IMG/VR virus record: IMGVR_UViG_3300021405_000011
From: an uncultured virus (IMG/VR IMGVR_UViG_3300021405_000011)
Lineage: Duplodnaviria > Heunggongvirae > Uroviricota > Caudoviricetes
DNA length: 20,000 nucleotides
Strand: one strand, 5' to 3'
Part shown: positions 3,948 through 16,325 of the stretch, piece by piece
Position numbering within the stretch: position 1 is the first letter of the stretch
Layout of the letters: each line of letters starts with the position of its first letter
The notes under the pieces: generated by a model
What the model was told of the DNA's origin: nothing
What the model saw: only the letters and a program-made list of their open reading frames with translations
Database searches by the model: none
Translations under genes and position numbers: made by a program

Positions 3948-4382
3948 TTAGTGAGGCTCCCCAACCACCAAATCCCTAATCTCCTCCCTCACTCTCATCA
4001 AAATCTTCCCTAGATGATTCTGCCCTATCCCATTCACCGTCCCCCAGAATGCATCCCCCCACCAGTTACCTTCCTGTATCTCCTCATCTCCAGTATCCAA
4101 AAGCATCCCACGTAATGGTTCACTAGAGAACTTTTGGAGTACCAAACTCTCCATTACCCTAAGTTTCTCCTTCTCCCAATCCGGTCTCATTTTGACTATC
4201 CTACCCAACCGTTTAGCCTCGGACGCCTTAATATTCTCGAATCTGATACAGTCATGGATATCCGCACACTTCGCTGCCTGATAGGCGTTCTCCACGGATG
4301 GATAAGGAACTCCATGCCAGTAGACGTAACAGGACCAGAAGTTGGAGAGGAATCGGAATTTCCCTGTTAGTTCGCCAATCAC
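3948..4382 (-). CDS. NADAR (YbiA-like) family protein
   Basis: FLSNF, YPSVENAYQAAK, AKRLGR, KF...L...LLDTG, EGNWWGDAFWG, GQNHLGKILMRVR signatures. Confidence 0.9.
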   Translation of the reverse strand: MIGELTGKFRFLSNFWSCYVYWHGVPYPSVENAYQAAKCADIHDCIRFENIKASEAKRLGRIVKMRPDWEKEKLRVMESLVLQKFSSEPLRGMLLDTGDEEIQEGNWWGDAFWGTVNGIGQNHLGKILMRVREEIRDLVVGEPH

Positions 4383-6740: not shown

Positions 6741-7022
6741 TTACCTCTCCCTCGTCACTATCACCAAATTCCCCACTATCCCATCCGCTGGCCACCGTCC
6801 ATATATCTCGGTAGCCTTCCGGTTCAAGGGTAGCCCCTTCAACTTCCCTTCCTCATTTACATAAGCCTGATTATGACCATTCCCCGGCGGGAGATAAATC
6901 AACTCAATATACCCCTCCACTAACCCCTGTAACTCCTTCAAACTAAACTTCTTACCGTCTTTGGGATTCACTAGAGTATCCGTCCCATCCGGGTAGATTA
7001 CTCGTGCTATCTGTCTCTTCAT
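6741..7022 (-). CDS. DUF3846-like protein
   Basis: SLKELQGLVEGYIE...YVNEEGKLKGLPLNRKAT...IVGNLVIV pattern; ATGA overlap at 7019-7022. Confidence 0.75.
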   Translation of the reverse strand: MKRQIARVIYPDGTDTLVNPKDGKKFSLKELQGLVEGYIELIYLPPGNGHNQAYVNEEGKLKGLPLNRKATEIYGRWPADGIVGNLVIVTRER

Positions 7023-7234
7023 CGTCCTACCTTCCCTCCATTCTTCCCATTTGTCCCCGCGATATATCCCAGCCACCTGTCATACTTAAACGCACTGTTC
7101 TGACTCTTACAGAAGTCAGCCAGCATCTCTATCGCTGCTGGTGTCAGTGCCTCATGTGCGCGGTTAGGGTGACTAGTTTTGCGATTGAACTCTCGAATCG
7201 CATCCGCCAGAGCTATTAACACTTTCTTTGTCAT
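7019..7234 (-). CDS. Hypothetical phage protein
   Basis: 71 aa, GGGAGG RBS. Confidence 0.7.
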   Translation of the reverse strand: MTKKVLIALADAIREFNRKTSHPNRAHEALTPAAIEMLADFCKSQNSAFKYDRWLGYIAGTNGKNGGKVGR

Positions 7235-7379: not shown

Positions 7380-7585
7380 CTCACCCCTCCATCTCTGGTC
7401 ACTAACCCAACTTCCCTATCGAATGGCCCTACAACTACAGTACCGATATCCCCATTCCAATGGATATCCACAATACTGGACCTCAAGTGTTTCTTTACTT
7501 CCTTCAACAATGACCTCTCGTCAATCACCCTCACCCGGCCACTGTATTTATCCCTCCCCACCTCAATTAAGTTATAAGATTGCAT
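7376..7585 (-). CDS. Hypothetical protein
   Basis: 69 aa, GGAG RBS. Confidence 0.65.
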   Translation of the reverse strand: MQSYNLIEVGRDKYSGRVRVIDERSLLKEVKKHLRSSIVDIHWNGDIGTVVVGPFDREVGLVTRDGGVS

Positions 7586-7760
7586 CCTTTAGCTCCTCCT
7601 TCTTCCGCCAAGTACCGGGACGTTTCAGGCCAATTGTTCCGTCGGCTAACTCATACCGAAGGAATTTCTGACCTAGCCGTGTCACGACCTCACCCTTTTT
7701 AACCTGTTCCACGGTCCCATCATCGGCAATGACCTCGTACTTTATTCGTGGTCTACTCAT
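7572..7760 (-). CDS. Hypothetical protein
   Basis: 62 aa, GAGG RBS, overlaps neighbours. Confidence 0.65.
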   Translation of the reverse strand: MSRPRIKYEVIADDGTVEQVKKGEVVTRLGQKFLRYELADGTIGLKRPGTWRKKEELKDAIL

Positions 7761-7938
7761 ATAAGATATTTACCTCTCTTTTGTCAATACGAATATACAG
7801 ATGCTCCAAAGTATCCACACGATTCAACTCGTGAACACTCCCTTGGATACCCTCAACCACGAGGATACCCACAGTAGGATTCACTTTACCTTCCCCCCTC
7901 GTTCTCCCACCTCTCCACGTCCTCATCCTCCTTATCAA
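7753..7938 (-). CDS. Hypothetical protein
   Basis: ORF fills the gap in the operon; start uncertain. Confidence 0.5.
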   Translation of the reverse strand: MIRRMRTWRGGRTRGEGKVNPTVGILVVEGIQGSVHELNRVDTLEHLYIRIDKREVNILYE

Positions 7939-8168
7939 TAATCGTCAACCGCATCCGCCCCCGCTTCTCCCATCAACTCAATGGCCCTCGCAATCCCGCC
8001 ACCTGAGATAATGGACTCCCCTATCCCCACACCAAAATGGATAAGGACCTTCATCAAAGCGGTCCCAGCCACTACCGCCGCCGCAAGAACGAAGTACCAC
8101 AACAAGAAACGGTACAGTTTCTTGTTCATTCTAATGACTTTATACTTTGCCTTGAACTTTGTCCCCAT
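7935..8168 (-). CDS. Small membrane protein
   Basis: Hydrophobic FLLWYFVLAAAVVAGTALMKVLIHFGVGI. Confidence 0.65.
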   Translation of the reverse strand: MGTKFKAKYKVIRMNKKLYRFLLWYFVLAAAVVAGTALMKVLIHFGVGIGESIISGGGIARAIELMGEAGADAVDDY

Positions 8169-8295
8169 TCTCCCTTTTACCTCTCTCCCTCTCCACGAGA
8201 GTCGAAATGGTGAACACTATCTCTCCCACAACCATAGCAATCACCGTTATCCTCGATACCAGTTCTTCCAGTAGCCCCGGTATTCCTTCATTCAT
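8140..8295 (-). CDS. 51-aa probable membrane microprotein
   Basis: MNEGIPGLLEELVSRITVIAMVVGEIVFTISTLVERERGK...; fills the operon gap. Confidence 0.45.
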   Translation of the reverse strand: MNEGIPGLLEELVSRITVIAMVVGEIVFTISTLVERERGKRENGDKVQGKV

Positions 8296-8518
8296 GTCCA
8301 ATAGCCACATGTTTCCCTCCCTTCGGTATGGGCTCCTCTACGTCCCATGTCGGGTACTTTTCAAATAGCCGACTGGCAGGCGGCAACATAATCGCCACAT
8401 TCTCATGGTCCGCCCTCAAGAAAGCGTCCGCAAACGCTCTCAGAAAGTGTCCACTCTCATGTGGATGACCATTGACCACGTTACGTGCCCAACGGTAGAC
8501 GACATATTCGTTTACCAT
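8288..8518 (-). CDS. Hypothetical phage protein
   Basis: 76 aa, AGGAGG RBS; GHFLRAFADAFLRAD segment. Confidence 0.7.
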   Translation of the reverse strand: MVNEYVVYRWARNVVNGHPHESGHFLRAFADAFLRADHENVAIMLPPASRLFEKYPTWDVEEPIPKGGKHVAIGHE

Positions 8519-8589
8519 TTCACCCTCCTCATAGTGACCGCCAACCCAAAAAAGATAACCGTCACTATCACTAACATATCCATCGGCAT
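8512..8589 (-). CDS. 25-aa membrane microprotein
   Basis: MPMDMLVIVTVIFFGLAVTMRRVKW; its tail carries the next gene's RBS. Confidence 0.55.
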   Translation of the reverse strand: MPMDMLVIVTVIFFGLAVTMRRVKW

Positions 8590-8593
8590 AGGC

Positions 8594-8794
8594 TCACCGG
8601 CTCCTTGCGATTAGGGCACGTTTGGCCTGCTCCAACTGAGCATTCCTCACGTCTCCAATAGGCACGGTCGTATTCCAAACCATACTGCTATCGCGTGTGT
8701 CTACCACGTCCAAATACACACTGTCATTCGGACCTACGATAGTTCGTGTCTGAATATGCTGCCGTGTCTCAAAGTGCGACTTCACTTGTTCCAT
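8594..8794 (-). CDS. Hypothetical protein
   Basis: 66 aa, AGGAGG RBS. Confidence 0.7.
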   Translation of the reverse strand: MEQVKSHFETRQHIQTRTIVGPNDSVYLDVVDTRDSSMVWNTTVPIGDVRNAQLEQAKRALIARSR

Positions 8795-8904
8795 TTTATT
8801 CCTCCTTGTAACCTTTTGTTACATTGATGTACCTATGAATAATCCACATAGGATGCATCCCGACACGGTTAAGATTCACGTCCCTAACCGTGTGAAGCTG
8901 AACC

Positions 8905-9147
8905 CTAAACTGTCTGGGGAACTGTTACCGTCCTACTCGACCTCTCCACATGCGGCCCAAAATACTTGAGATTAACGTTAGGAACGTAGTAGACCGTGTG
9001 CTGCTCATACCCCATCGAATGTCCCAATTGGGTATCAATACACGTAATGATTAACGTATCCGCTTCCGTCCTCCACGTTGTATTGGCCAGAGGGAACAGT
9101 ATGGGCAACCGTCCTATAATCTCTAGCCTCAAAAATTGCTGTTCCAT
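8905..9147 (-). CDS. Hypothetical protein
   Basis: 80 aa, GGGAGAG RBS after module. Confidence 0.7.
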   Translation of the reverse strand: MEQQFLRLEIIGRLPILFPLANTTWRTEADTLIITCIDTQLGHSMGYEQHTVYYVPNVNLKYFGPHVERSSRTVTVPQTV

Positions 9148-9224
9148 CCATCTCTCTCCCGAGTTCCACTATCCATGAGTTAGAACTCCTTAATCTCACT
9201 CTCAACGAATGAGATTACAGCGGT

Positions 9225-9632
9225 CTAACGAATGAATCCCAAATCCATCAATAATCCCATCGGCATGTGACCGGCGTTCTTAGCGATATTGCTATAATTC
9301 CCTATCGCCTTCTTAGCTATCGTGGACTCCGATATCCCCGGCACTATCTCATCCGCGAATTTCCACGCTTCTTTCTCCGCTACCAACGTGTCATTCGCTG
9401 AGGAATGATATCTCCCGCTATTCATCGCCGCCGGGGTCTCTAGTATCCTTCCCACAAAATGCCCCAACTCGTGAGCAAGGACAGCGGGAGTATTATCCTC
9501 TCCCGACCTCTCCTTATCCCCTTTGGGATTCAGGACAATCTTGTAATCTCCCGTCACATTGTCCCTTTTTGTGAAGCTAGACTTAGTGGAATCCTCGTCT
9601 ATCCACACTTCCAACGTTCCCAATTTCCTCAT
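9225..9632 (-). CDS. HExxH zinc metallopeptidase-like protein (ImmA/IrrE-like), paralog 1
   Basis: VLAHELGH plus downstream AEKEAWKFA (candidate third ligand Glu). Confidence 0.75.
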   Translation of the reverse strand: MRKLGTLEVWIDEDSTKSSFTKRDNVTGDYKIVLNPKGDKERSGEDNTPAVLAHELGHFVGRILETPAAMNSGRYHSSANDTLVAEKEAWKFADEIVPGISESTIAKKAIGNYSNIAKNAGHMPMGLLMDLGFIR

Positions 9633-9716
9633 CCATATTCTCCCTTGAGACTCCCTATTCCTCTAGGCGACTCTCCTTAGAGACACTGTTATCCAAACCA
9701 ATGTCCCTACAGCGGG

Positions 9717-10133
9717 TCACTTAAAATTATCACTCGCGTCTTCCATCAACGCATCCGCTCCCCATTCCTTCATCCCCTCCAGAAAGTCATTCATGGGTTC
9801 GGTATACACCGGCCTCTTGACAATCCCCGGTACAATCTTCTCCGAGAATCCCCACGCCTCTTTCTCCGCAGCATATTGCTGACCTAACGTGGTAGTGGGC
9901 AATCCACTCCGTTCAGAGATAGGCGTCCTGAACAAATGCGCCACAACATGCCCCAACTCGTGTGCGAATATGTCTTCGGTATCCTTCCCTGCACTACCAA
10001 ACGCCTTGTCAGCGTTAGGCCGCAGATAAATCTCAAATGTGTTACTGTCCGTCTGCCAATGCGTGTAAGAGCTTCCATCTCCCTTACCCGCATCTTTGTC
10101 CAGGAACACCTTGATTAAAGCTATTTGTTCCAT
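9717..10133 (-). CDS. HExxH zinc metallopeptidase-like protein (ImmA/IrrE-like), paralog 2
   Basis: IFAHELGH plus AEKEAWGFS..IVPGI; start MEQIAL at 10133 after GGGAGA. Confidence 0.75.
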   Translation of the reverse strand: MEQIALIKVFLDKDAGKGDGSSYTHWQTDSNTFEIYLRPNADKAFGSAGKDTEDIFAHELGHVVAHLFRTPISERSGLPTTTLGQQYAAEKEAWGFSEKIVPGIVKRPVYTEPMNDFLEGMKEWGADALMEDASDNFK

Positions 10134-10200
10134 AACTATCTCCCTGAGACATAATGTAAGTCTCATATAGTACACTCGCACTGAATGTACTATCTGTGAA

Positions 10201-10296
10201 TCACATATATATCCGGTAATACGCCAACGCAGCGTACCCAGCGACTAACCACCAAAACACTCGTTTCAAAATAGACTCAGCACGTTCCGTCGTCAT
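10201..10296 (-). CDS. 31-aa membrane microprotein
   Basis: GGAGG RBS; MTTERAESILKRVFWWLVAGYAALAYYRIYM. Confidence 0.6.
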   Translation of the reverse strand: MTTERAESILKRVFWWLVAGYAALAYYRIYM

Positions 10297-10615
10297 GGCA
10301 ATTCCTCCCTATCCATTCCGTCCCCACATAAGCCGGACTAGGATAATCCCGTTTAGGCGAATCACTAGGATTCACCCAACCATGGTTAACCTCATGTGTC
10401 ACCTGATGAACTGGACACGCCGCTTGCATCCCTACAATCGTTGGATACAATCGTCTCGCCACAAACTCCGCGTAGAACTCCGGCCACGAGACATTCTCCC
10501 TATTAATCTCATCCACTGAACGTCCCTCAGCCTTCATGTTCTCCACAAGGTTATGATGAGCCTTCCCAGCCTCAATCAACGCCGACTCGATAGCCAGCTT
10601 CAAACTAGTTTCCAT
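10277..10615 (-). CDS. Hypothetical protein
   Basis: 112 aa, GGGAGA RBS after module. Confidence 0.7.
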   Translation of the reverse strand: METSLKLAIESALIEAGKAHHNLVENMKAEGRSVDEINRENVSWPEFYAEFVARRLYPTIVGMQAACPVHQVTHEVNHGWVNPSDSPKRDYPSPAYVGTEWIGRNCHDDGTC

Positions 10616-10765
10616 ATCTATCTCCCTCTAGACTCCCTACAAAGCGAGTCTCCCCACGTCCCCTCACTTGGACAGCCATACAGGCGACGGCATGAATAAT
10701 CGTCCCGTTATTACTAGCGCTCACTGATATGGCCATCCAAGAGAAGGGACGTGTAGCGAATCACT

Positions 10766-10924
10766 TTAACTGTGAAAGTTATCCCTATAGGCGTCGCGGT
10801 AATCCACCGCATCGTCCACGTCCTCCACGTCCCCACTCCCATCGTCATCCGGGTCCGGTCTAGCAGAGCGTAATCTCTCAATCACTCTCTCCCACCACCC
10901 CTTACTTGCTTCCGTATAACTCAT
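10766..10924 (-). CDS. Small acidic protein
   Basis: Asp-rich C-terminus; start likely MSYTEA (10924) after GAGG. Confidence 0.55.
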   Translation of the reverse strand: MSYTEASKGWWERVIERLRSARPDPDDDGSGDVEDVDDAVDYRDAYRDNFHS

Positions 10925-11039
10925 AGACCTCAATCCCTTCCGTTCCATACATGAGAATCACGCCTATCACCGATACCGCTATTCCTCCCAGTACCAGCAA
11001 CGCGCTACCCTCCAATATGGAGACTATCCATGTTGGCAT
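10902..11039 (-). CDS. 45-aa membrane microprotein
   Basis: GGGAGAG RBS after module; MPTWIVSILEGSALLVLGGIAVSVIGVILMYGTEGIEVYELYGSK. Confidence 0.65.
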   Translation of the reverse strand: MPTWIVSILEGSALLVLGGIAVSVIGVILMYGTEGIEVYELYGSK

Positions 11040-11115
11040 ATACTCTCCCGAATGTCACCACGAAATATAAGTAACACTCATACTACCCACTAATTTCTAA
11101 TGGGCAGTCTGCGGA

Positions 11116-11430
11116 TTACTTAACCGTATTCGTCAATTTATCCAGAGTGTGACCTTCAAAGTAACGGTCACGTTCAATCTTGAGTCCCCCAGGTCCCCTC
11201 ACTGACTCCAATTCAGACAGCAGAAAGTTCCCCAGTTCCTTTTCGTGTCCTTCCACCAATCCAAAGAACTCCCAATCCCCATTGACCTTATTCCCCTCCA
11301 CCGCGTACCACGTCCAATAACTCCACGGTGTGAAGAATTTAACTATCACTGGGACAGGATTCACCTTCTCAGTGGAATACAGCGGAGACTTGAGTAACTT
11401 ACTCTCAATCTCCTTGGTAATCATTTGCAT
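11116..11430 (-). CDS. DUF2958-like protein
   Basis: VKFFTPWSYWTWYAVE...FFGLVEGHEKELGNFLLSELESVRGPGGLKIERDRYF; start MQMIT at 11430. Confidence 0.8.
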   Translation of the reverse strand: MQMITKEIESKLLKSPLYSTEKVNPVPVIVKFFTPWSYWTWYAVEGNKVNGDWEFFGLVEGHEKELGNFLLSELESVRGPGGLKIERDRYFEGHTLDKLTNTVK

Positions 11431-11494
11431 AATCACTCTCCCGAGACTAAGTAAGTCCCACAGTGAGCACTCTCCCCGAATGCCCACGAGCGAA

Positions 11495-11767
11495 TCACTT
11501 ATTCGCAATATAACTCGCACATACTGGAGCATGTAACTCCGTTGTAGCGTCACCCTCGTTTGCCAGAAGATAGTAATACCTCTCCCCATCCCCTAAACTC
11601 TCTTGGATATACACTGGCTTCCCTTGTTTAGCATGTTCGATAGCCAAGTTAAGGGCAATCTTATCCCTCTTCCAAGCCACCTTATCCAAGGTTAGAGACT
11701 TAACCTTCCTATACTCCCGGCGACACGCTAATAACTCCTCTAACGTCGCCTGTCTCATTCCTTCCAC
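11495..11767 (-). CDS. Hypothetical protein
   Basis: 90 aa, GGGAGG RBS after module. Confidence 0.7.
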   Translation of the reverse strand: MEGMRQATLEELLACRREYRKVKSLTLDKVAWKRDKIALNLAIEHAKQGKPVYIQESLGDGERYYYLLANEGDATTELHAPVCASYIANK

Positions 11768-11838
11768 TACTCACCTCCCATCACCCTAACGTAAGTGATT
11801 TCAGAGAGGCACTGTCTCCAGTGCCCTACTGGAATAAC

Positions 11839-12060
11839 TTACCTCTTGCGCGGTCCCAAATCTTCCCACGGTCCAAACTTCCCCGCACCGGGAAGAATCT
11901 CCCGCCGCCAGTTGTGATTGTCACAACTCACGGTTTCTTGATATCTCACATCCTCCGCAATCTTCGGAACAGGCCGCTCTGATAATTCCTTCAACGCGGC
12001 CACAACTCCCGCCGACTGCAATTGCTCCAATTTCTCCGTCGTTGCTGTCTTCGTTTCCAT
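11839..12060 (-). CDS. Hypothetical protein
   Basis: 73 aa, AGGAG RBS after module. Confidence 0.7.
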   Translation of the reverse strand: METKTATTEKLEQLQSAGVVAALKELSERPVPKIAEDVRYQETVSCDNHNWRREILPGAGKFGPWEDLGPRKR

Positions 12061-12136
12061 AATTCTCCTTGATACTTATAGAGTAAGTATCGTGATGCCC
12101 ACTATCTCTAATGGGCATCCCACTAATCACTCTCTC

Positions 12137-12304
12137 TTACTCCCCGAGAGGGTCCTCATCCGTCCCATTGTCCGGGTCACTCAGGTACCGATTTAGCGCA
12201 TCGTTAAACTGCGCCTGCTGTTCCGGCGTCGGTTGCGTCTCCGCGTGTGCTCCCTGAGCCGCTTTCGCTGCCTGAGCCGTGGTATGCTTGCGAGTCTTTG
12301 TCAT
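12137..12304 (-). CDS. Small hypothetical protein
   Basis: Start MTKTRKH at 12304 after GGAG; upstream part of the track ORF is module sequence. Confidence 0.6.
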   Translation of the reverse strand: MTKTRKHTTAQAAKAAQGAHAETQPTPEQQAQFNDALNRYLSDPDNGTDEDPLGE

Positions 12305-12384
12305 AGTGTCTCCACTCACTCTGTCCACATTGCCTAATGAACATTGTGTGTCCCACTTTCGGACCCCAAATGGGACACCCACTG

Positions 12385-12476
12385 TCCACTATTCCCATAC
12401 CAGTTAGGTGACGCTCACCTCCACGTTGCCGGGTATAACTGGCTAGAACCCGGCGAGTTAAATGGGTATCAGTGGA
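12385..12476 (-). ncRNA. Putative structured RNA: three-way junction with possible pseudoknot
   Basis: Closing stem 12385-12398/12462-12476; hairpins 12406-12420 and 12428-12454; loop TAACTGG (12436-12442) complementary to CCAGTTA (12400-12406). Confidence 0.5.
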
Positions 12477-12479
12477 AAC

Positions 12480-12749
12480 TTAATCGCTAACGTGGTGAGG
12501 ATTCCTACTTCCCCTCTGCACTTTCCCCTGTCCATTTTGCGGCGCTTTAATCAACCCATCCCGCATTAACCGGACAGCCGTCCTACCGTAACTCCCCTGC
12601 AATTGCCACACCATCCCAGTATCCACAAGATGCTGGAATAACGTGACAATCGCATCCTCATCCAATTCCCCACTCTCATAGGCCATAATCTGACCTACGG
12701 TGTCATAGGGTTTGAATATCTGAGGGAGTTTGCTTACTTGTCTCGCCAT
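12480..12749 (-). CDS. Hypothetical phage protein
   Basis: IMAYESGEL...LFQHLVDTGMVWQLQGSYGRTA pattern; GGGAGAG RBS. Confidence 0.75.
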   Translation of the reverse strand: MARQVSKLPQIFKPYDTVGQIMAYESGELDEDAIVTLFQHLVDTGMVWQLQGSYGRTAVRLMRDGLIKAPQNGQGKVQRGSRNPHHVSD

Positions 12750-12984
12750 ATCACTCTCCCTTTGTTCTCTCCTTGAATGGCAGTAAGTAGACCAACAATA
12801 GGAACAAAACTGTTCCCATCGCTACTCTCCCCACTGTCTCAAGGAAGAACACTAACGAGAGTGTGTCACTATCGCCCACTCTCATGGTTGTCTCCCCGCG
12901 TCCCCAACTATCCTAACTAGGTGCGCGATGCATCACATTACCCGTAACTATGAATAATGTGATGACTCTCGCATCTACTTGGAT

Positions 12985-13299
12985 TCAACTTACGTTTGGC
13001 TCAATAGTGTCCATTAGACTAGGTTCCCCATGTCCAGCCAGCATCCTAACCTCAGCGTAATCACGAGAGTAATCCCTATCACTCCCGCAACATTGAGTCA
13101 GTTTATGGAGATAAAGCGCGACGATTGGATGAGTGTTAACCCATGTAGTACTCTCACCTATTCTGTGCGCCTCATTCCACAGAGTAGACAGCGCACGGTT
13201 AAGACTCCCAACAATCCCAGAGACATTAACGCCATCTTGCACGTTAAGGCATTCCTGAGCTTCATCGGCCACCGTACGTGTATTAGGCTCCCATGTCAT
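12985..13299 (-). CDS. Hypothetical protein
   Basis: 104 aa, GGAGG RBS. Confidence 0.7.
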   Translation of the reverse strand: MTWEPNTRTVADEAQECLNVQDGVNVSGIVGSLNRALSTLWNEAHRIGESTTWVNTHPIVALYLHKLTQCCGSDRDYSRDYAEVRMLAGHGEPSLMDTIEPNVS

Positions 13300-13301
13300 A
13301 A

Positions 13302-13379
13302 TTAGTTATCCTCCCTCCTCATTAACTCACTAGTAATCAACATGAGGAAGAGGAAACTAATAACTACAAACGTTGTCAT
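13302..13379 (-). CDS. 25-aa membrane microprotein
   Basis: GGGAGAG RBS; MTTFVVISFLFLMLITSELMRREDN. Confidence 0.6.
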   Translation of the reverse strand: MTTFVVISFLFLMLITSELMRREDN

Positions 13380-13523
13380 AGTATCCACTCTCCCAGAGCA
13401 ACCAACGAATATGCTCTGCGTCCGTTACAGTCGTAATCTGTGAATCCCTAGTAAGATTCATTCCCCATTCGGTACTCGACTAGCAGAATACCGACAGACC
13501 ACTGTAACGGATGCACGGCATAT

Positions 13524-13640
13524 TCACCGTGTGCGTAACTTCGTCCAATACCCAAACCCCATTTTCGTAAACGCTTTCCCCATAGCCAGTAATATCACCA
13601 TAACGAAAACGAGTATGGACAATACTTTACTGTTCATCAT
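13524..13640 (-). CDS. 38-aa membrane microprotein
   Basis: GGAGG RBS; MMNSKVLSILVFVMVILLAMGKAFTKMGFGYWTKLRTR. Confidence 0.6.
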   Translation of the reverse strand: MMNSKVLSILVFVMVILLAMGKAFTKMGFGYWTKLRTR

Positions 13641-13719
13641 TCCTACACCCTCCCAACACCCAACCTACTCCTCCCAAAACTATCAACGTGATGTAGAGGA
13701 GTATCACGATATTCAACAT
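13627..13719 (-). CDS. 30-aa membrane microprotein
   Basis: GAGG RBS; MLNIVILLYITLIVLGGVGWVLGGCRNDEQ. Confidence 0.6.
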   Translation of the reverse strand: MLNIVILLYITLIVLGGVGWVLGGCRNDEQ

Positions 13720-13880
13720 TGGATTTACCTCAGAGCAAGAATACGCTCTATTAGAGGAGTTAATGTCTAACTAGAATGAAATAATACAGAACTGGTAAAC
13801 TCACAATCCTATTCCCACTAACTCCGCTAACAGAGGATACTCACTTGAGTACGCTCTATTAAGGGATTGCCTATGAGAAA

Positions 13881-14084
13881 CTACTTGACCTTGATTACCA
13901 CACCGTTTTCCATGGTCGCCTGAGCGTACCACGTGTGCGGTGCTGGATAATGCGGACCTTCCACGTATTCAATCCCATTATCCTTCGGACTGCCCAAACC
14001 CGGTGCGTACAACCTAACCTTCGCTCCAGACTCGACAGCCAAACGAAATTGCTTCTTTGTTTTATAGTTCTCTACGGTATACAT
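13881..14084 (-). CDS. Small hypothetical phage protein enclosed by inverted repeats
   Basis: 67 aa, GGGAGG RBS; EGPHYPAPHTWYA segment. Confidence 0.75.
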   Translation of the reverse strand: MYTVENYKTKKQFRLAVESGAKVRLYAPGLGSPKDNGIEYVEGPHYPAPHTWYAQATMENGVVIKVK

Positions 14085-14130
14085 GGTCTAGTTCCTCCCA
14101 TGCAATCCCTTAACAGAACATACTTCTAAT

Positions 14131-14365
14131 GGAGTGTGTCCTGTAAACTGGATAACTCGCCAAACATCCATTAAGCTGTCTACCCTAATAGCTATGGACT
14201 CTTAGACTTTTGCTGTACTGGCCTGTAGAGCTTGTTAGCGTCAATACAGGCAATCTTCACCTATCAGTACAGTTTGCTATCCAGTTAACAGAACACACTC
14301 CCACACTCCCATATTCGGTATAACCGTTATCCAATGGACTCGGTTAATCCTACTTAGAGAGTGTG
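14131..14365 (-). ncRNA. Putative large structured intergenic RNA
   Basis: 24-nt imperfect closing stem 14131-14154/14278-14301 with nested stems CTGTACTG/CAGTACAG and GCCTGTA/TACAGGC; further stem 14302-14365. Confidence 0.55.
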
Positions 14366-14397
14366 GAATTATGTTTGTGCGGCATGCGACGCGAGAG

Positions 14398-14778
14398 TTA
14401 ACTCGCGTGTAACTCTTCCCGGTATTCCTTCGCTGTCCTACTGAAAACATCGGCCATATGACCGTCGCCAAGCAAAACTTGCTCAGCGGCCATCGTTACC
14501 CCAACGAAATATACCGGATTGTAAGTCTTCCCTTGCCGAATGCCGCGCAACATACTGACAGCATCCTCAAGAATAGCCTTACTCTCTTGACTCAGTACCA
14601 GAATTGCTTGCATGGAATGGTCTCCCTTAACAGGATTTAACTCCCCCGTCCCATGCCGCCAAAACTTGAATTGAGCTATCTGTTTGCGCCGCGTCTTACT
14701 AGCCTTTCGCCGTCCCACAATAGGGACGATACTGTCAATGCACGCGAAGGATGCGGCAACCGTCTTTTCATTCTGCAT
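14398..14778 (-). CDS. Hypothetical protein, first gene of the leftward array (true start may be 14613)
   Basis: Track ORF; best RBS (AAGGGAG) precedes MQAILV at 14613. Confidence 0.55.
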   Translation of the reverse strand: MQNEKTVAASFACIDSIVPIVGRRKASKTRRKQIAQFKFWRHGTGELNPVKGDHSMQAILVLSQESKAILEDAVSMLRGIRQGKTYNPVYFVGVTMAAEQVLLGDGHMADVFSRTAKEYREELHAS

Positions 14779-14784
14779 GGTTTA

Positions 14785-15083
14785 GTCCGTTTTGCTACGG
14801 ACGCCTTGTCCCCCCGAATGCTAGTGACAGACTGCCACTAGGCCGGAGACTACATCGGACCATACGAGTATCTGTTGCGCTCAATTATCACTAGGGCATT
14901 TATGACTACCTTTAGCCTAGCGCTCAGTTTGGCGTGCTACCCTACGGTCCCTTATCCATTGACTAGCAGGTTGCTTCGGGAGACTGCATTCTCAGACTGA
15001 GAACCTAACTACCCCATCCCTGCCCGCTATCCCATGACCTGCTCGGAACGCGGATTGCATCCGGGACGATACTCTCACAAGGC
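14785..15083. ncRNA. Putative structured leader or ncRNA
   Basis: No ORF; GCCTTGT/ACAAGGC closing pair (14803/15077) with nested CTAGTGA/TCACTAG, GTCCC/GGGAC, AGCAGGT/ACCTGCT. Confidence 0.4.
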
Positions 15084-15300
15084 CAAACTACTGCTATGGC
15101 ATGTAGCAAGACACTATCCACAGTTAACTTGCTGATTCTAATAGGTATGCCCGACACTCACTAGGTAAAATCGCCATAGCAATCTAAACGAGTTAACTCC
15201 CACTAGCGTCTAACCTACTGATTCTAATACACTTCATTACTATAGCGAATTTACATAGTGACTGTAATATCTACTCTCAAGAATAACGATATTCTAACGA

Positions 15301-15309
15301 TTATCCACA
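15301..15309 (+). promoter_or_regulatory. Consensus DnaA box
   Basis: TTATCCACA exact; 1-mismatch CTATCCACA at 15114-15122. Confidence 0.35.
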
Positions 15310-15452
15310 CTCTCACACGTCCATTGTTATCAGTGACTTACAGAAACCTTGCACTGGGATAGGTAGCAATTGTCAAGTTATTGATTCGATTGGAGTTACT
15401 CATTAGTTTAACAACGTCTAAAGTTTTGCTGTAGCGCCTCTAATTGAGAGTT

Positions 15453-15600
15453 TAGTATTCACAGTACTCATAGTACTAGATGCACTACCCTCAGTACGTT
15501 CAGAACTCACAGGACCATCAGTACCATTAGTACTAGCTAGTACGCTCGTTACTCTTAGTAGTACACTAACTATCGGTACTCACAGTACCTACAGTACTAT
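15453..15600. repeat. Degenerate 9-bp tandem repeat (consensus near CAGTACTCA)
   Basis: AGTAC-like cores at 15454, 15463, 15472, 15493, 15502, 15511, 15520, 15529, 15539, 15548, 15557, 15575, 15584, 15593. Confidence 0.8.
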
Positions 15601-15777
15601 CACTAACGTTAGTTTATACTTTAGTTAATCTCACCATCACCTGTCCTGTCACCCTCAGCCGCCCTCAGTGTAGGGGTACATAAGCCAGGTAGGGGTCGAG
15701 ACAGGAACAGTCTCCTCCAAGTAATTTTTCCCCTAAAATTAGTGTAACTACGAATATTTCCATCAGCGGTAATAGTA

Positions 15778-15990
15778 CTATTCACTTGGATAGTCACGTT
15801 TGATGATGCGACGGGTGTAGATATCTATTAGCCGAGAACGCTCAAGGAACGTATGTGGATAGAGGTCAGCCGCTCGTCCACGGCAGAATCTCAAAGCGTG
15901 AGTGAGACGTTGGATACGGTTGAGGAGGGTGGAAAGAGGACAAGTTTCCCAAGTTTCATTAGGGTCCTTGGGGATGACCTCATCGACCAT
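15778..15990 (-). CDS. Hypothetical protein
   Basis: 70 aa, TGATG overlap with upstream gene. Confidence 0.55.
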   Translation of the reverse strand: MVDEVIPKDPNETWETCPLSTLLNRIQRLTHALRFCRGRAADLYPHTFLERSRLIDIYTRRIIKRDYPSE

Positions 15991-16325
15991 CAGATTTCTA
16001 GACGGTCCAGCAGGTCACCAATACGGTTAATCTGGAATTGTAGACGGTTGGAATTCCTATGGACCACAGCCACTAAATGCACTGGATGCTCCTGTTGTTT
16101 ATCCGCTCCTGGATTACTTGGGGATGGTTGAGTGGGCCGCAATGCCGGAGCCAATCTCCGTTCGAGCTGATTCACGGCATTATCCAAATCCTGCATCAAC
16201 GCCTCGTGAGCCAACATGGCCTCGGTTACGAGGGGACTGCGTTCTGTTGGCATGTTTTGGGGACTGCCTAAGCCACTACCCGCGGTGCCACCAACCTGAC
16301 CTGCTCTACTGAGTTCACCGTACAT
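15990..16325 (-). CDS. Coiled-coil hypothetical protein
   Basis: Start MYGELS at 16325 after AGGAGAG; two amphipathic helical stretches. Confidence 0.65.
   Translation of the reverse strand: MYGELSRAGQVGGTAGSGLGSPQNMPTERSPLVTEAMLAHEALMQDLDNAVNQLERRLAPALRPTQPSPSNPGADKQQEHPVHLVAVVHRNSNRLQFQINRIGDLLDRLEI

Follow-up and report, generated by a model that had tools for sequence, protein, structure and literature searches.

Genomic setting

The window, by which we mean the whole 20,000-nt stretch of DNA analysed here, belongs to a linear 48.5-kb virus record that is 72% complete (CheckV), and the runs that contain its sequence come from soil, both metagenomes and metatranscriptomes. The + strand carries the terminase, portal, and structural genes from 16410, and many small genes, most of them unannotated, follow one another down the - strand from about 15,000, a gene layout that suggests a tailed phage with its early operon. 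Proteins recognized in this operon are NADAR (3948–4382), DUF2958 (11116–11427), DUF7417 (12480–12749), and DUF3846 (6741–7076). The window also carries, at 9225–10133, 2 tandem paralogues with an AHELGH motif that are zinc-peptidase-like (weak match to Peptidase_M91, below the cut-off). The features at the head of the operon are as follows, from high to low coordinates.

15453–15614, no strand: short tandem repeats in the gap between the early operon and the terminase, a possible genome end
15154–15265, - strand: stem D0, upstream of the leader; overlaps a sigma-70-like site (15268–15239)
14648–15080, - strand (taken from the operon direction): non-coding leader of about 430 nt
14373–14665, - strand: stem D1, 293 nt; encloses the 71-aa ORF 14613–14398
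14398–14613, - strand: 71-aa ORF with a Shine-Dalgarno sequence (SD), in D1; no homologue found
14292–14375, - strand: hairpin D2; its 3' end overlaps the D3 5' arm by about 10 nt
14131–14301, - strand: stem D3, with a folded non-coding insert of 119 nt; basal motif shared
14102–14124, - strand: outer 5' arm of stem D4 (arm A2); 15 bases common to D3 and D5, plus a private inner part
14085–14097, - strand: inner 5' arm of D4; carries the SD GAGGA and reaches the base before the AUG
13881–14084, - strand: 67-codon ORF of a widespread unannotated viral family with an invariant GPHYPAPHTWYA-like block
13875–13890, - strand: inner 3' arm of D4; starts in the last codons and takes in the UAG stop (13883–13881)
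13848–13870, - strand: outer 3' arm of D4 (arm B2)
13827–13862, - strand: alternative local hairpin B2–A3, predicted only without the 5' arm
13739–13842, - strand: stem D5, with a 50-nt insert; basal motif shared
13398–13534, - strand: stem D6, enclosing 2 small hairpins; the 3' arm has a third copy of the B word (13417)
7831–12983, - strand: 12 further irregular hairpins of 50–130 nt, mostly between early genes (outer ends at 12983, 12836, 12654, 12391, 12133, 11122, 10768, 10206, 9726, 9237, 8907, and 7884)

A row of stems with shared and private parts

Six stems, D1–D6, lie nearly end to end at the head of the early operon (14665–13398), with two small ORFs between D5 and D6, and two to four of the six have no ORF at all. 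The original prediction dealt with the fourth, D4, which encloses the 67-codon ORF, and missed that it belongs to a series. Across the 7.9-kb early region, 19 stems score at least 17, against a mean of 0.86 (maximum 4) in 100 shuffles, and 8 score at least 22, against 0.01 in the shuffles. Among 11 stems taken from a strand-symmetric scan, the sense strand has 26 G-U to 3 A-C (P = 0.001 after base composition), and this excess indicates that pairing is selected on the transcribed strand—i.e. the helix acts at the RNA level, as had been proposed. No promoter-like or terminator-like site is found in the arms of D3–D6.

Stems D3, D4, and D5 combine a common base with individual inner parts. Aligned in register, they are paired in 70 of 75 cells and show two-sided changes at 10 of 25 positions. 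The outer 15 bp are interchangeable, with 11–15 of 15 pairing in every D3/D4/D5 combination, whereas the inner 9 bp are private: each pairs with its own arm at 9, 9, and 8 of 9 positions and with the other arms at 4–6 of 9. The related words said to recur around D4 do recur, and are the shared bases of these neighbouring stems (3 and 5 matches vs 0.03 and 1.14 expected, for patterns picked after being seen).

The early region as a whole is over-structured, with a sense-strand mean z of -2.7 for 10,000–13,400 and -2.0 for 13,400–14,700, compared with -0.4 to 0.1 in the late region; a general cause could explain this excess across 10,000–14,700, coding parts included. Hairpins of 22 and 14 bp lie inside ORFs of the window, and a 22-bp hairpin (12654–12598) sits within the DUF7417 ORF. 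The strongest early-strand stem of the genome is intergenic (10640–10768; 48 bp, score 33.9). The intergenic hairpins 12133–12080 and 11122–11068 both carry TGCCCATTAG...TAGTGGG, and RNA contigs begin at 12086 and 11064, positions that coincide with these hairpins or lie just past them.

Structure of the D4 clamp

D4 spans 277 nt and clamps the 67-codon ORF between its arms. Its outer helix joins 14124–14102 with 13870–13848 in 23 uninterrupted pairs, including 3 G-U on the - strand, exactly as read earlier from the inverted repeats and their three mismatches. A 4x4 loop separates it from the inner helix, where GAGGAACUA (14097–14089, bearing the SD) pairs with 13883–13875 with one G-U; this inward continuation had likewise been foreseen, and GACC at 14088–14085 adds 4 more pairs with 13890–13887. 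The duplex energy is -53.0 kcal/mol (outer helix alone, -35.5), and only one stem on the early strand of the genome exceeds its score of 31.3; when the 7.9-kb early region was dinucleotide-shuffled 100 times, no stem scored above 22.6. Folding of the 361-nt clamp region gives z -6.35, with none of 100 shuffles as good, and the inner helix over SD and stop has a predicted probability of 0.98. The inside of the clamp alone, coding part included, is over-structured as well (z -4.0).

The local hairpin proposed as an alternative fold (13862–13827; -16.1 kcal/mol) exists and excludes the outer helix. Its role as a switch did not hold up: the predicted probability is at most 0.001 while the 5' arm is present, and in an RNA that starts at 14100 the hairpin forms but the SD helix, which it does not overlap, stays at 0.97. 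The alternative hairpin is not an on-switch. Since the shared motif lets any 3' arm pair with the next 5' arm, it is a by-product of the array.

The enclosed gene

Judged from its sequence relatives, ORF 14084–13881 is a real gene, with homologues in 22 viral and at least 150 metagenome stretches. The 67-aa protein is hydrophilic (net charge +3, maximum 19-residue hydropathy 0.35) and is modelled as a compact alpha/beta structure (pLDDT 93). It matches no Pfam or PHROG family, and its Atlas clusters are unnamed. The best match in a fold search has Z 3.5, with no viral structure at E ≤ 0.001, a result that shows neither a new fold nor a function. The original prediction held the product to be potentially toxic. 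No toxin family or toxin fold is matched, and nothing suggests a membrane toxin.

Recurrence of gene clamps at other loci

Homologues of the gene were collected at 105 loci, and once 7 with flanks shorter than 100 nt and 19 duplicates were dropped, 79 remained, including this phage. The same gene is clamped in 2 of the 78 other distinct loci, L064 (score 30.9) and L089 (30.3; L091 is a duplicate of the latter), and the next best score, 20.3, is not at gene borders. The gene stands without a clamp in 76 of the 78, and the cultured Pseudomonas phage Lucjan has it without a clamp too. The three clamped proteins are 60–66% identical and the clamp arms are mutually unrelated. Homologues had been expected to conserve the arms; what recurs is the clamping of the gene, and not the arms themselves. 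For D4, the searched loci include no close relative and no homologous arms that could show covariation between genomes. The terminase search gave four viral loci at 30–54% and none in genomes; the promoter of the nearest, L023, is ordinary, and this locus lacks a clamp array. Terminase relatives at 60–76% also occur on contigs. No viral loci were found for the small terminase, the L089 118-aa protein, or the L119 177-aa protein, the junction-pattern search returned 0 viral contigs, and the non-coding region of the window matched no phage record and none of the loci compared with it.

Both L064 and L089 clamp a neighbouring gene as well. In L089, 2 consecutive genes each have their own perfect 24–25-bp Watson-Crick pair. 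In L064, a core word is common to 4 junctions, and a 14-bp helix (by eye) closes the preceding gene; upstream of these clamps come tandem repeats, a TTGACA-17-TACAAT promoter, and a stretch of some 600 nt in which no gene is convincing. The L064 junctions (807–835, 1078–1112, 1345–1379, and 1435–1463) share CCTTCCCCGTAGG in direct orientation, which as RNA gives every clamp a 7x7 internal loop with two-fold symmetry; an arm of this locus takes part in two helices that exclude each other. Short tandem repeats sit just upstream of the leader in both the window (15453–15614) and L064 (1–110), possibly marking a genome end or packaging region. A further clamp, of 29 bp, encloses a 177-aa gene at L119 (115–729), two genes upstream of an unclamped homologue.

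The L064 core word occurs in 103 viral stretches, and the 80 of these 103 that were listed, each with a single match, served as controls. Gene-enclosing stems scoring at least 18 occur in 8 of 106 homologue loci and in 7 of 80 controls, and given this similar rate the weak ones are noise. A score of at least 24 is reached by four loci (L064, L089 with its duplicate L091, and L119) and by none of the 80 controls (maximum 21.8). The clamp is therefore not a property of the protein family, but it recurs. The tree of 82 homologues is mostly unresolved and places L064 in a supported group with 13 unclamped rows; a common origin of the three clamps is, from these sequences, neither shown nor excluded.

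The clamps also share a geometry, with arm limits set by hand from the folds. In 5 of 6 clamped genes the main helix ends 16–18 nt before the AUG (17, 17, 16, 18, 18) and resumes 5–11 nt past the stop (10, 11, 10, 5, 6), and D1 is the outlier (23 nt before the AUG, -4 at the stop).

Clamps were seen in the metagenome set only, and none in the first 22 viral homologue loci, where L006 has z -2.3 and L020 (z -4.1) was rejected as a repeated palindrome. Three other candidates, L037, L048, and L116, were rejected because halves of repeated intergenic hairpins mimic a clamp, and the long repeats of L031 and L051 enclose AT-rich non-coding DNA. In L037 (1843–5310), at least 7 intergenic hairpins, nearly identical and each with an internal loop, are spread through a cluster of small genes to which the homologue belongs, and repeated hairpins of this kind are also found in L048, L105, and L116.

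Predicted access to the ribosome site

The cost of opening positions -16 to +12 around the AUG was computed for nascent and clamped RNA by equilibrium folding without ribosomes. For D4 it rises from 11.9 to 23.1 kcal/mol on clamping, and the claim that this gene hides its own ribosome-binding site is thereby borne out in silico. By contrast, the cost falls for D1 (15.0 to 7.4 kcal/mol), for both genes of L089 (16.4 to 8.3 and 15.0 to 6.4), and for both of L064 (10.5 to 7.7 and 7.8 to 5.5); the values for 13 other early genes are 4.2–16.2 kcal/mol. As such, 5 of 6 clamps are predicted to free the ribosome site, with the 3' arm stripping a nascent hairpin, and D4 is the exception.

In L089, the 5' arm can pair with the bases immediately ahead of the AUG, in a hairpin of 7 bp for gene 1 (240–266) and of 13 bp for gene 2 (509–551). 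According to the computed folding order, the 5' arm would make its hairpin first and the 3' arm would displace it, and translation may perhaps start only on complete transcripts. When D4 is cut in the outer helix, its site stays closed (21.8–23.1 kcal/mol), and processing alone therefore does not explain translation of the D4 gene. In these models, translation would need a nascent window, a cut in the 4x4 loop followed by more melting, or the arrival of a terminating ribosome at the stop codon, which is part of the inner helix.

RNA and DNA contigs

Three RNA runs and one DNA run were surveyed as assembled contigs. The deepest RNA contig of each run covers the leader—i.e. 14427–15078 (depth 31.5), 14648–15080 (27.7), and 14615–15075 (13.9)—and the upstream end common to the three studies (15078, 15080, and 15075) is a weak hint, given that the studies may be one campaign, that the runs were chosen with this region, and that depth cannot rank genes. 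The other 13 RNA pieces have depths of 2–3.7; 4 of the 16 pieces fall outside the array, and those of low depth may be DNA carry-over.

A contig at 13892–14095 (depth 2.5, one run) lies just inside the D4 clamp, which is a weak hint of processing, and two contigs fit the gene between hairpins 12133 and 11842. None of the 12 RNA contigs in 10,800–15,080 covers both arms of any intergenic or gene-enclosing stem, and three extend across one arm of D1 or D5. No cut site is seen in these contigs. For a stem list set in advance, 8 of 21 contig ends lie near arms, vs 6.0 expected, which is not significant (P = 0.22); P values of 0.003–0.03 arise only with stem lists adjusted after the contigs had been seen (12 of 21 ends, P = 0.003–0.012). 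Hairpins also stop reverse transcription. D2, D3, and D6 have no RNA contig.

The leader has no Rfam, tRNA, or tmRNA match and no SD-led ORF, its folding shows no excess over shuffles (z -0.26), and no canonical promoter is found at its upstream end. An Rfam scan of 8500–16200 gave no match near the gathering score, and homology between the leaders of the window and L064 is not detectable (203 of 300 shuffles score as well). The start of the leader, CGUCCC (15070–15065), can pair with GGGACG (14652–14647) in competition with the D1 5' arm. Upstream of the leader, in 15133–15229, the - strand has two copies of TATTAGAATCAG, at 15229 and 15142, which are possible promoter or operator words.

At the DNA level, where an inversion of the segment had been considered worth checking, run X1 gives a single contig that covers the window collinearly and without a joint, and the orientation in L053 agrees with it; rare forms are lost from contigs, and the X1 contig and L053 may both be the source of this DNA. 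No circular joint appears in the 4 runs, for which contigs show presence, not absence.

Interpretation of the clamps

Our preferred reading, which we hold to be somewhat probable, is that the clamps are leader-trailer stems in the style of rRNA, cut by a host double-strand RNase of the RNase III type. RNA polymerase would run down the - strand from about 15080 or upstream, and each 3' arm, as it emerges, would pair with its own 5' arm to produce a row of closed domains, D1–D6, followed by ordinary intergenic hairpins. Two of these domains would hold a whole minimal gene (SD, ORF, and stop) and the others non-coding inserts. The private inner 9 bp may act as the address of the right partner, and the shared outer 15 bp as a common signal, most likely a site for the host RNase. 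Assuming that such an enzyme is present, its cuts would release end-clamped units, as in pre-16S and pre-23S rRNA. Excision of a mini-transcript by RNase III, as put forward in the original prediction, is thus also the best reading here, with cleavage as its putative step.

With 23 + 9 + 4 pairs, D4 falls within the size range of 25–40 bp that PMC10250234 gives for leader-trailer helices, and its 23 uninterrupted pairs meet the ideal RNase III helix of about 22 bp (11 bp minimum; PMC3867540). The E. coli consensus WNAGWGNNCWU (PMC4357697), a weak one that varies with the host, is absent from the D4 arms and matches within 7500–15500 at 14204, 12855, and 12105 only. In D4 alone the pairing extends over SD and stop codon, and this occlusion may be a dose limiter on top of the processing stem: ribosomes would load mainly on nascent RNA that still lacks its final ~35 bases; alternatively, a terminating ribosome would melt the inner helix and let new ribosomes load.

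The clamps could instead be translation devices that stay uncut and hold the stop codon beside the start, which we judge rather unlikely. Most of them would then turn translation on only after the full gene has been transcribed, and in D4 a terminating ribosome would melt the SD helix and re-initiate in a closed loop, or translation would be confined to one short nascent-RNA window, as in the MS2 maturation gene. The fall in opening cost in 5 of 6 genes and its rise in D4 fit such devices, as do the L089 hairpins before the AUG and the fact that helices stop 16–18 nt before it, at the edge of a ribosome footprint; MS2 is a precedent (PMC4615214). However, D3, D5, and D6 enclose no gene and yet carry the basal motif, the sign of the effect in D4 is opposite to that of the other clamps, which argues against one translational purpose, and equilibrium folding without ribosomes is a rough guide. 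It is quite unlikely, in our view, that the first RNA made after injection is simply folded tightly throughout, coding parts included, with the clamps as the extreme; host single-strand RNases, Rho, or an RNA-targeting defence would be the threats, and no specific enzyme would be needed. The sense-strand z values of the early region relative to the late one, the z of the clamp interior alone, and the 22- and 14-bp hairpins within ORFs all speak for this shielding, but it leaves unexplained the common 15-bp base of three stems and the gene-border helices in three unrelated sequences. Moreover, long regular RNA helices invite RNase III rather than avoid attack.

Two other readings are far less credible. 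An mRNA like that of a type I toxin, silenced by 5'/3' fold-back and activated by the alternative hairpin or by 3' trimming, is highly improbable: the SD and start region is paired with the stop region at a probability of 0.98, and such a 5'-3' long-distance interaction is a hallmark of aapA/hok (PMC6733600) and icaR (PMC3868564), but the product is a hydrophilic folded protein of 67 aa, the alternative hairpin is unpopulated and off the SD helix, no terminator-like site past the 3' arm and no + strand promoter-like site nearby is found, and the gene does without a clamp at nearly all other loci. With D4 being one of six stems and 5 clamps predicted to free the ribosome site, the idea of a gene-specific hok-like device is not supported. 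Sites that work as DNA, either inversion or excision repeats for gene cassettes or single-stranded DNA hairpins, deserve equally little credence. The perfect 24–25-bp repeats of L089 and the direct core word at four L064 junctions would suit them, and a one-strand G-T bias also fits single-stranded DNA. Yet every domain has a private inner sequence, the X1 contig is collinear without a joint and L053 agrees in orientation (in contigs, which drop rare forms), the G-U/G-T bias is on the transcribed strand, and no recombinase, reverse transcriptase, or ligase family occurs among the scanned proteins of a genome 72% complete, with about 6 kb at the far end unscanned.

A more ambitious form of the leader-trailer reading, which we consider unlikely, is that the first transcript of some phages is built like pre-rRNA, so that a host double-strand RNase frees minimal end-clamped mRNAs with the stop beside the start, and that the clamp gates their translation. 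Gating would be on only when the gene is complete for most clamps, and a self-sustaining re-initiation for D4; the mRNAs would possibly be ligated into circles. The cuts would also release an abundant leader of about 430 nt and small RNAs (D3, D6) with roles in infection.

Comparison with known systems

To our knowledge, end-to-end closure is not a routine feature of bacterial mRNAs, with leader-trailer helices being known from rRNA. We take UGUUCUGUUAA to resemble boxA, and GUGUGGG (14307) presumably resembles boxC. In pre-16S and pre-23S rRNA, complementary flanks close each unit in a helix of 25–40 bp (PMC11404451, PMC10250234). Here too, flanks close a whole unit, several units follow one another in a precursor, and the 5' strand contains a conserved word, boxC in rRNA and the A word in this phage. 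Unlike in rRNA, the enclosed units are genes of 67–177 codons and small non-coding inserts, and cleavage and antitermination signals are putative, whereas the rRNA helices are RNase III substrates.

The RNase III sites of T7 are local hairpins between genes. Most T7 transcripts carry an RNase III site (PMC3867540). The early polycistronic RNA of the present phage is similarly punctuated by long irregular stems, and the hairpins from 12983 to 7884 fit this pattern; by contrast, D1 (293 nt) and D4 (277 nt) are long-range helices that enclose a gene.

Pairing of a 3' sequence with the SD or leader of its own mRNA is described for S. aureus icaR (PMC3868564) and B. subtilis hbs (PMC5737220), and the icaR pairing both prevents initiation and creates a substrate for RNase III. 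Each of these is a single mRNA from the chromosome, and the paired stretch is shorter, with a 7-nt motif in icaR and 14 bp in hbs, whereas the pairing here is 36–40 bp, starts at the stop codon, and belongs to a tandem array. The MS2 maturation gene is translated in a nascent-RNA window before an inhibitory long-distance pairing closes (PMC4615214); in that RNA phage the inhibitor is upstream in the 5' UTR, and in D4, from a DNA phage, it is downstream at the stop codon. The PeSL cassettes of T4-type phages, described in PMC2839356 as sigma-70 promoter plus terminator hairpins that recombine as DNA, likewise place repeated elements beside small non-essential early genes, but the arms here pair across the gene and match no promoter or terminator. 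D4 works like an rRNA leader-trailer helix and like icaR, and it is a member of neither group, nor of the type I toxins.

A literature search for such a phage layout or RNA found no paper, with thin coverage of subscription journals and older phage work. This case contributes stems that combine shared and private parts, a single gene found in three clamps of unrelated sequence, the direction in which clamping is predicted to shift translation, and RNA data open to mining. If our preferred reading is true, the phage uses host rRNA-maturation logic to portion and time its first products. One small gene with three unrelated arm pairs and equal start and stop distances is a ready test set, and because RNA of the phage exists in situ, the raw data already available could reveal cut sites. 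Should the clamp permit translation only once the gene is complete, it offers a compact design for synthetic mRNA; if the stems simply undergo RNase III processing, they are a modest extension of the T7 theme.

Type I toxins are small hydrophobic proteins. As in hok and aapA (PMC6733600), a 5'-3' long-distance pairing covers the SD, and a long-range helix replaces nascent hairpins, which applies here to L089, L064, and D1. Unlike in those mRNAs, there is no hydrophobic toxin in the clamp, neither antisense RNA nor a terminator was found (no + strand sigma-70-like site lies near the gene, and contigs carry no strand), the transcript runs on, and the final fold is more open in 5 of 6 clamps. Near the clamps, five small SD-led ORFs of 25–45 aa with hydrophobic stretches lie on the - strand (13627–13719, 13524–13640, 13302–13379, 12751–12885, and 10902–11039); they encode the kind of peptide typical of type I toxins, and none of the five is in a clamp.
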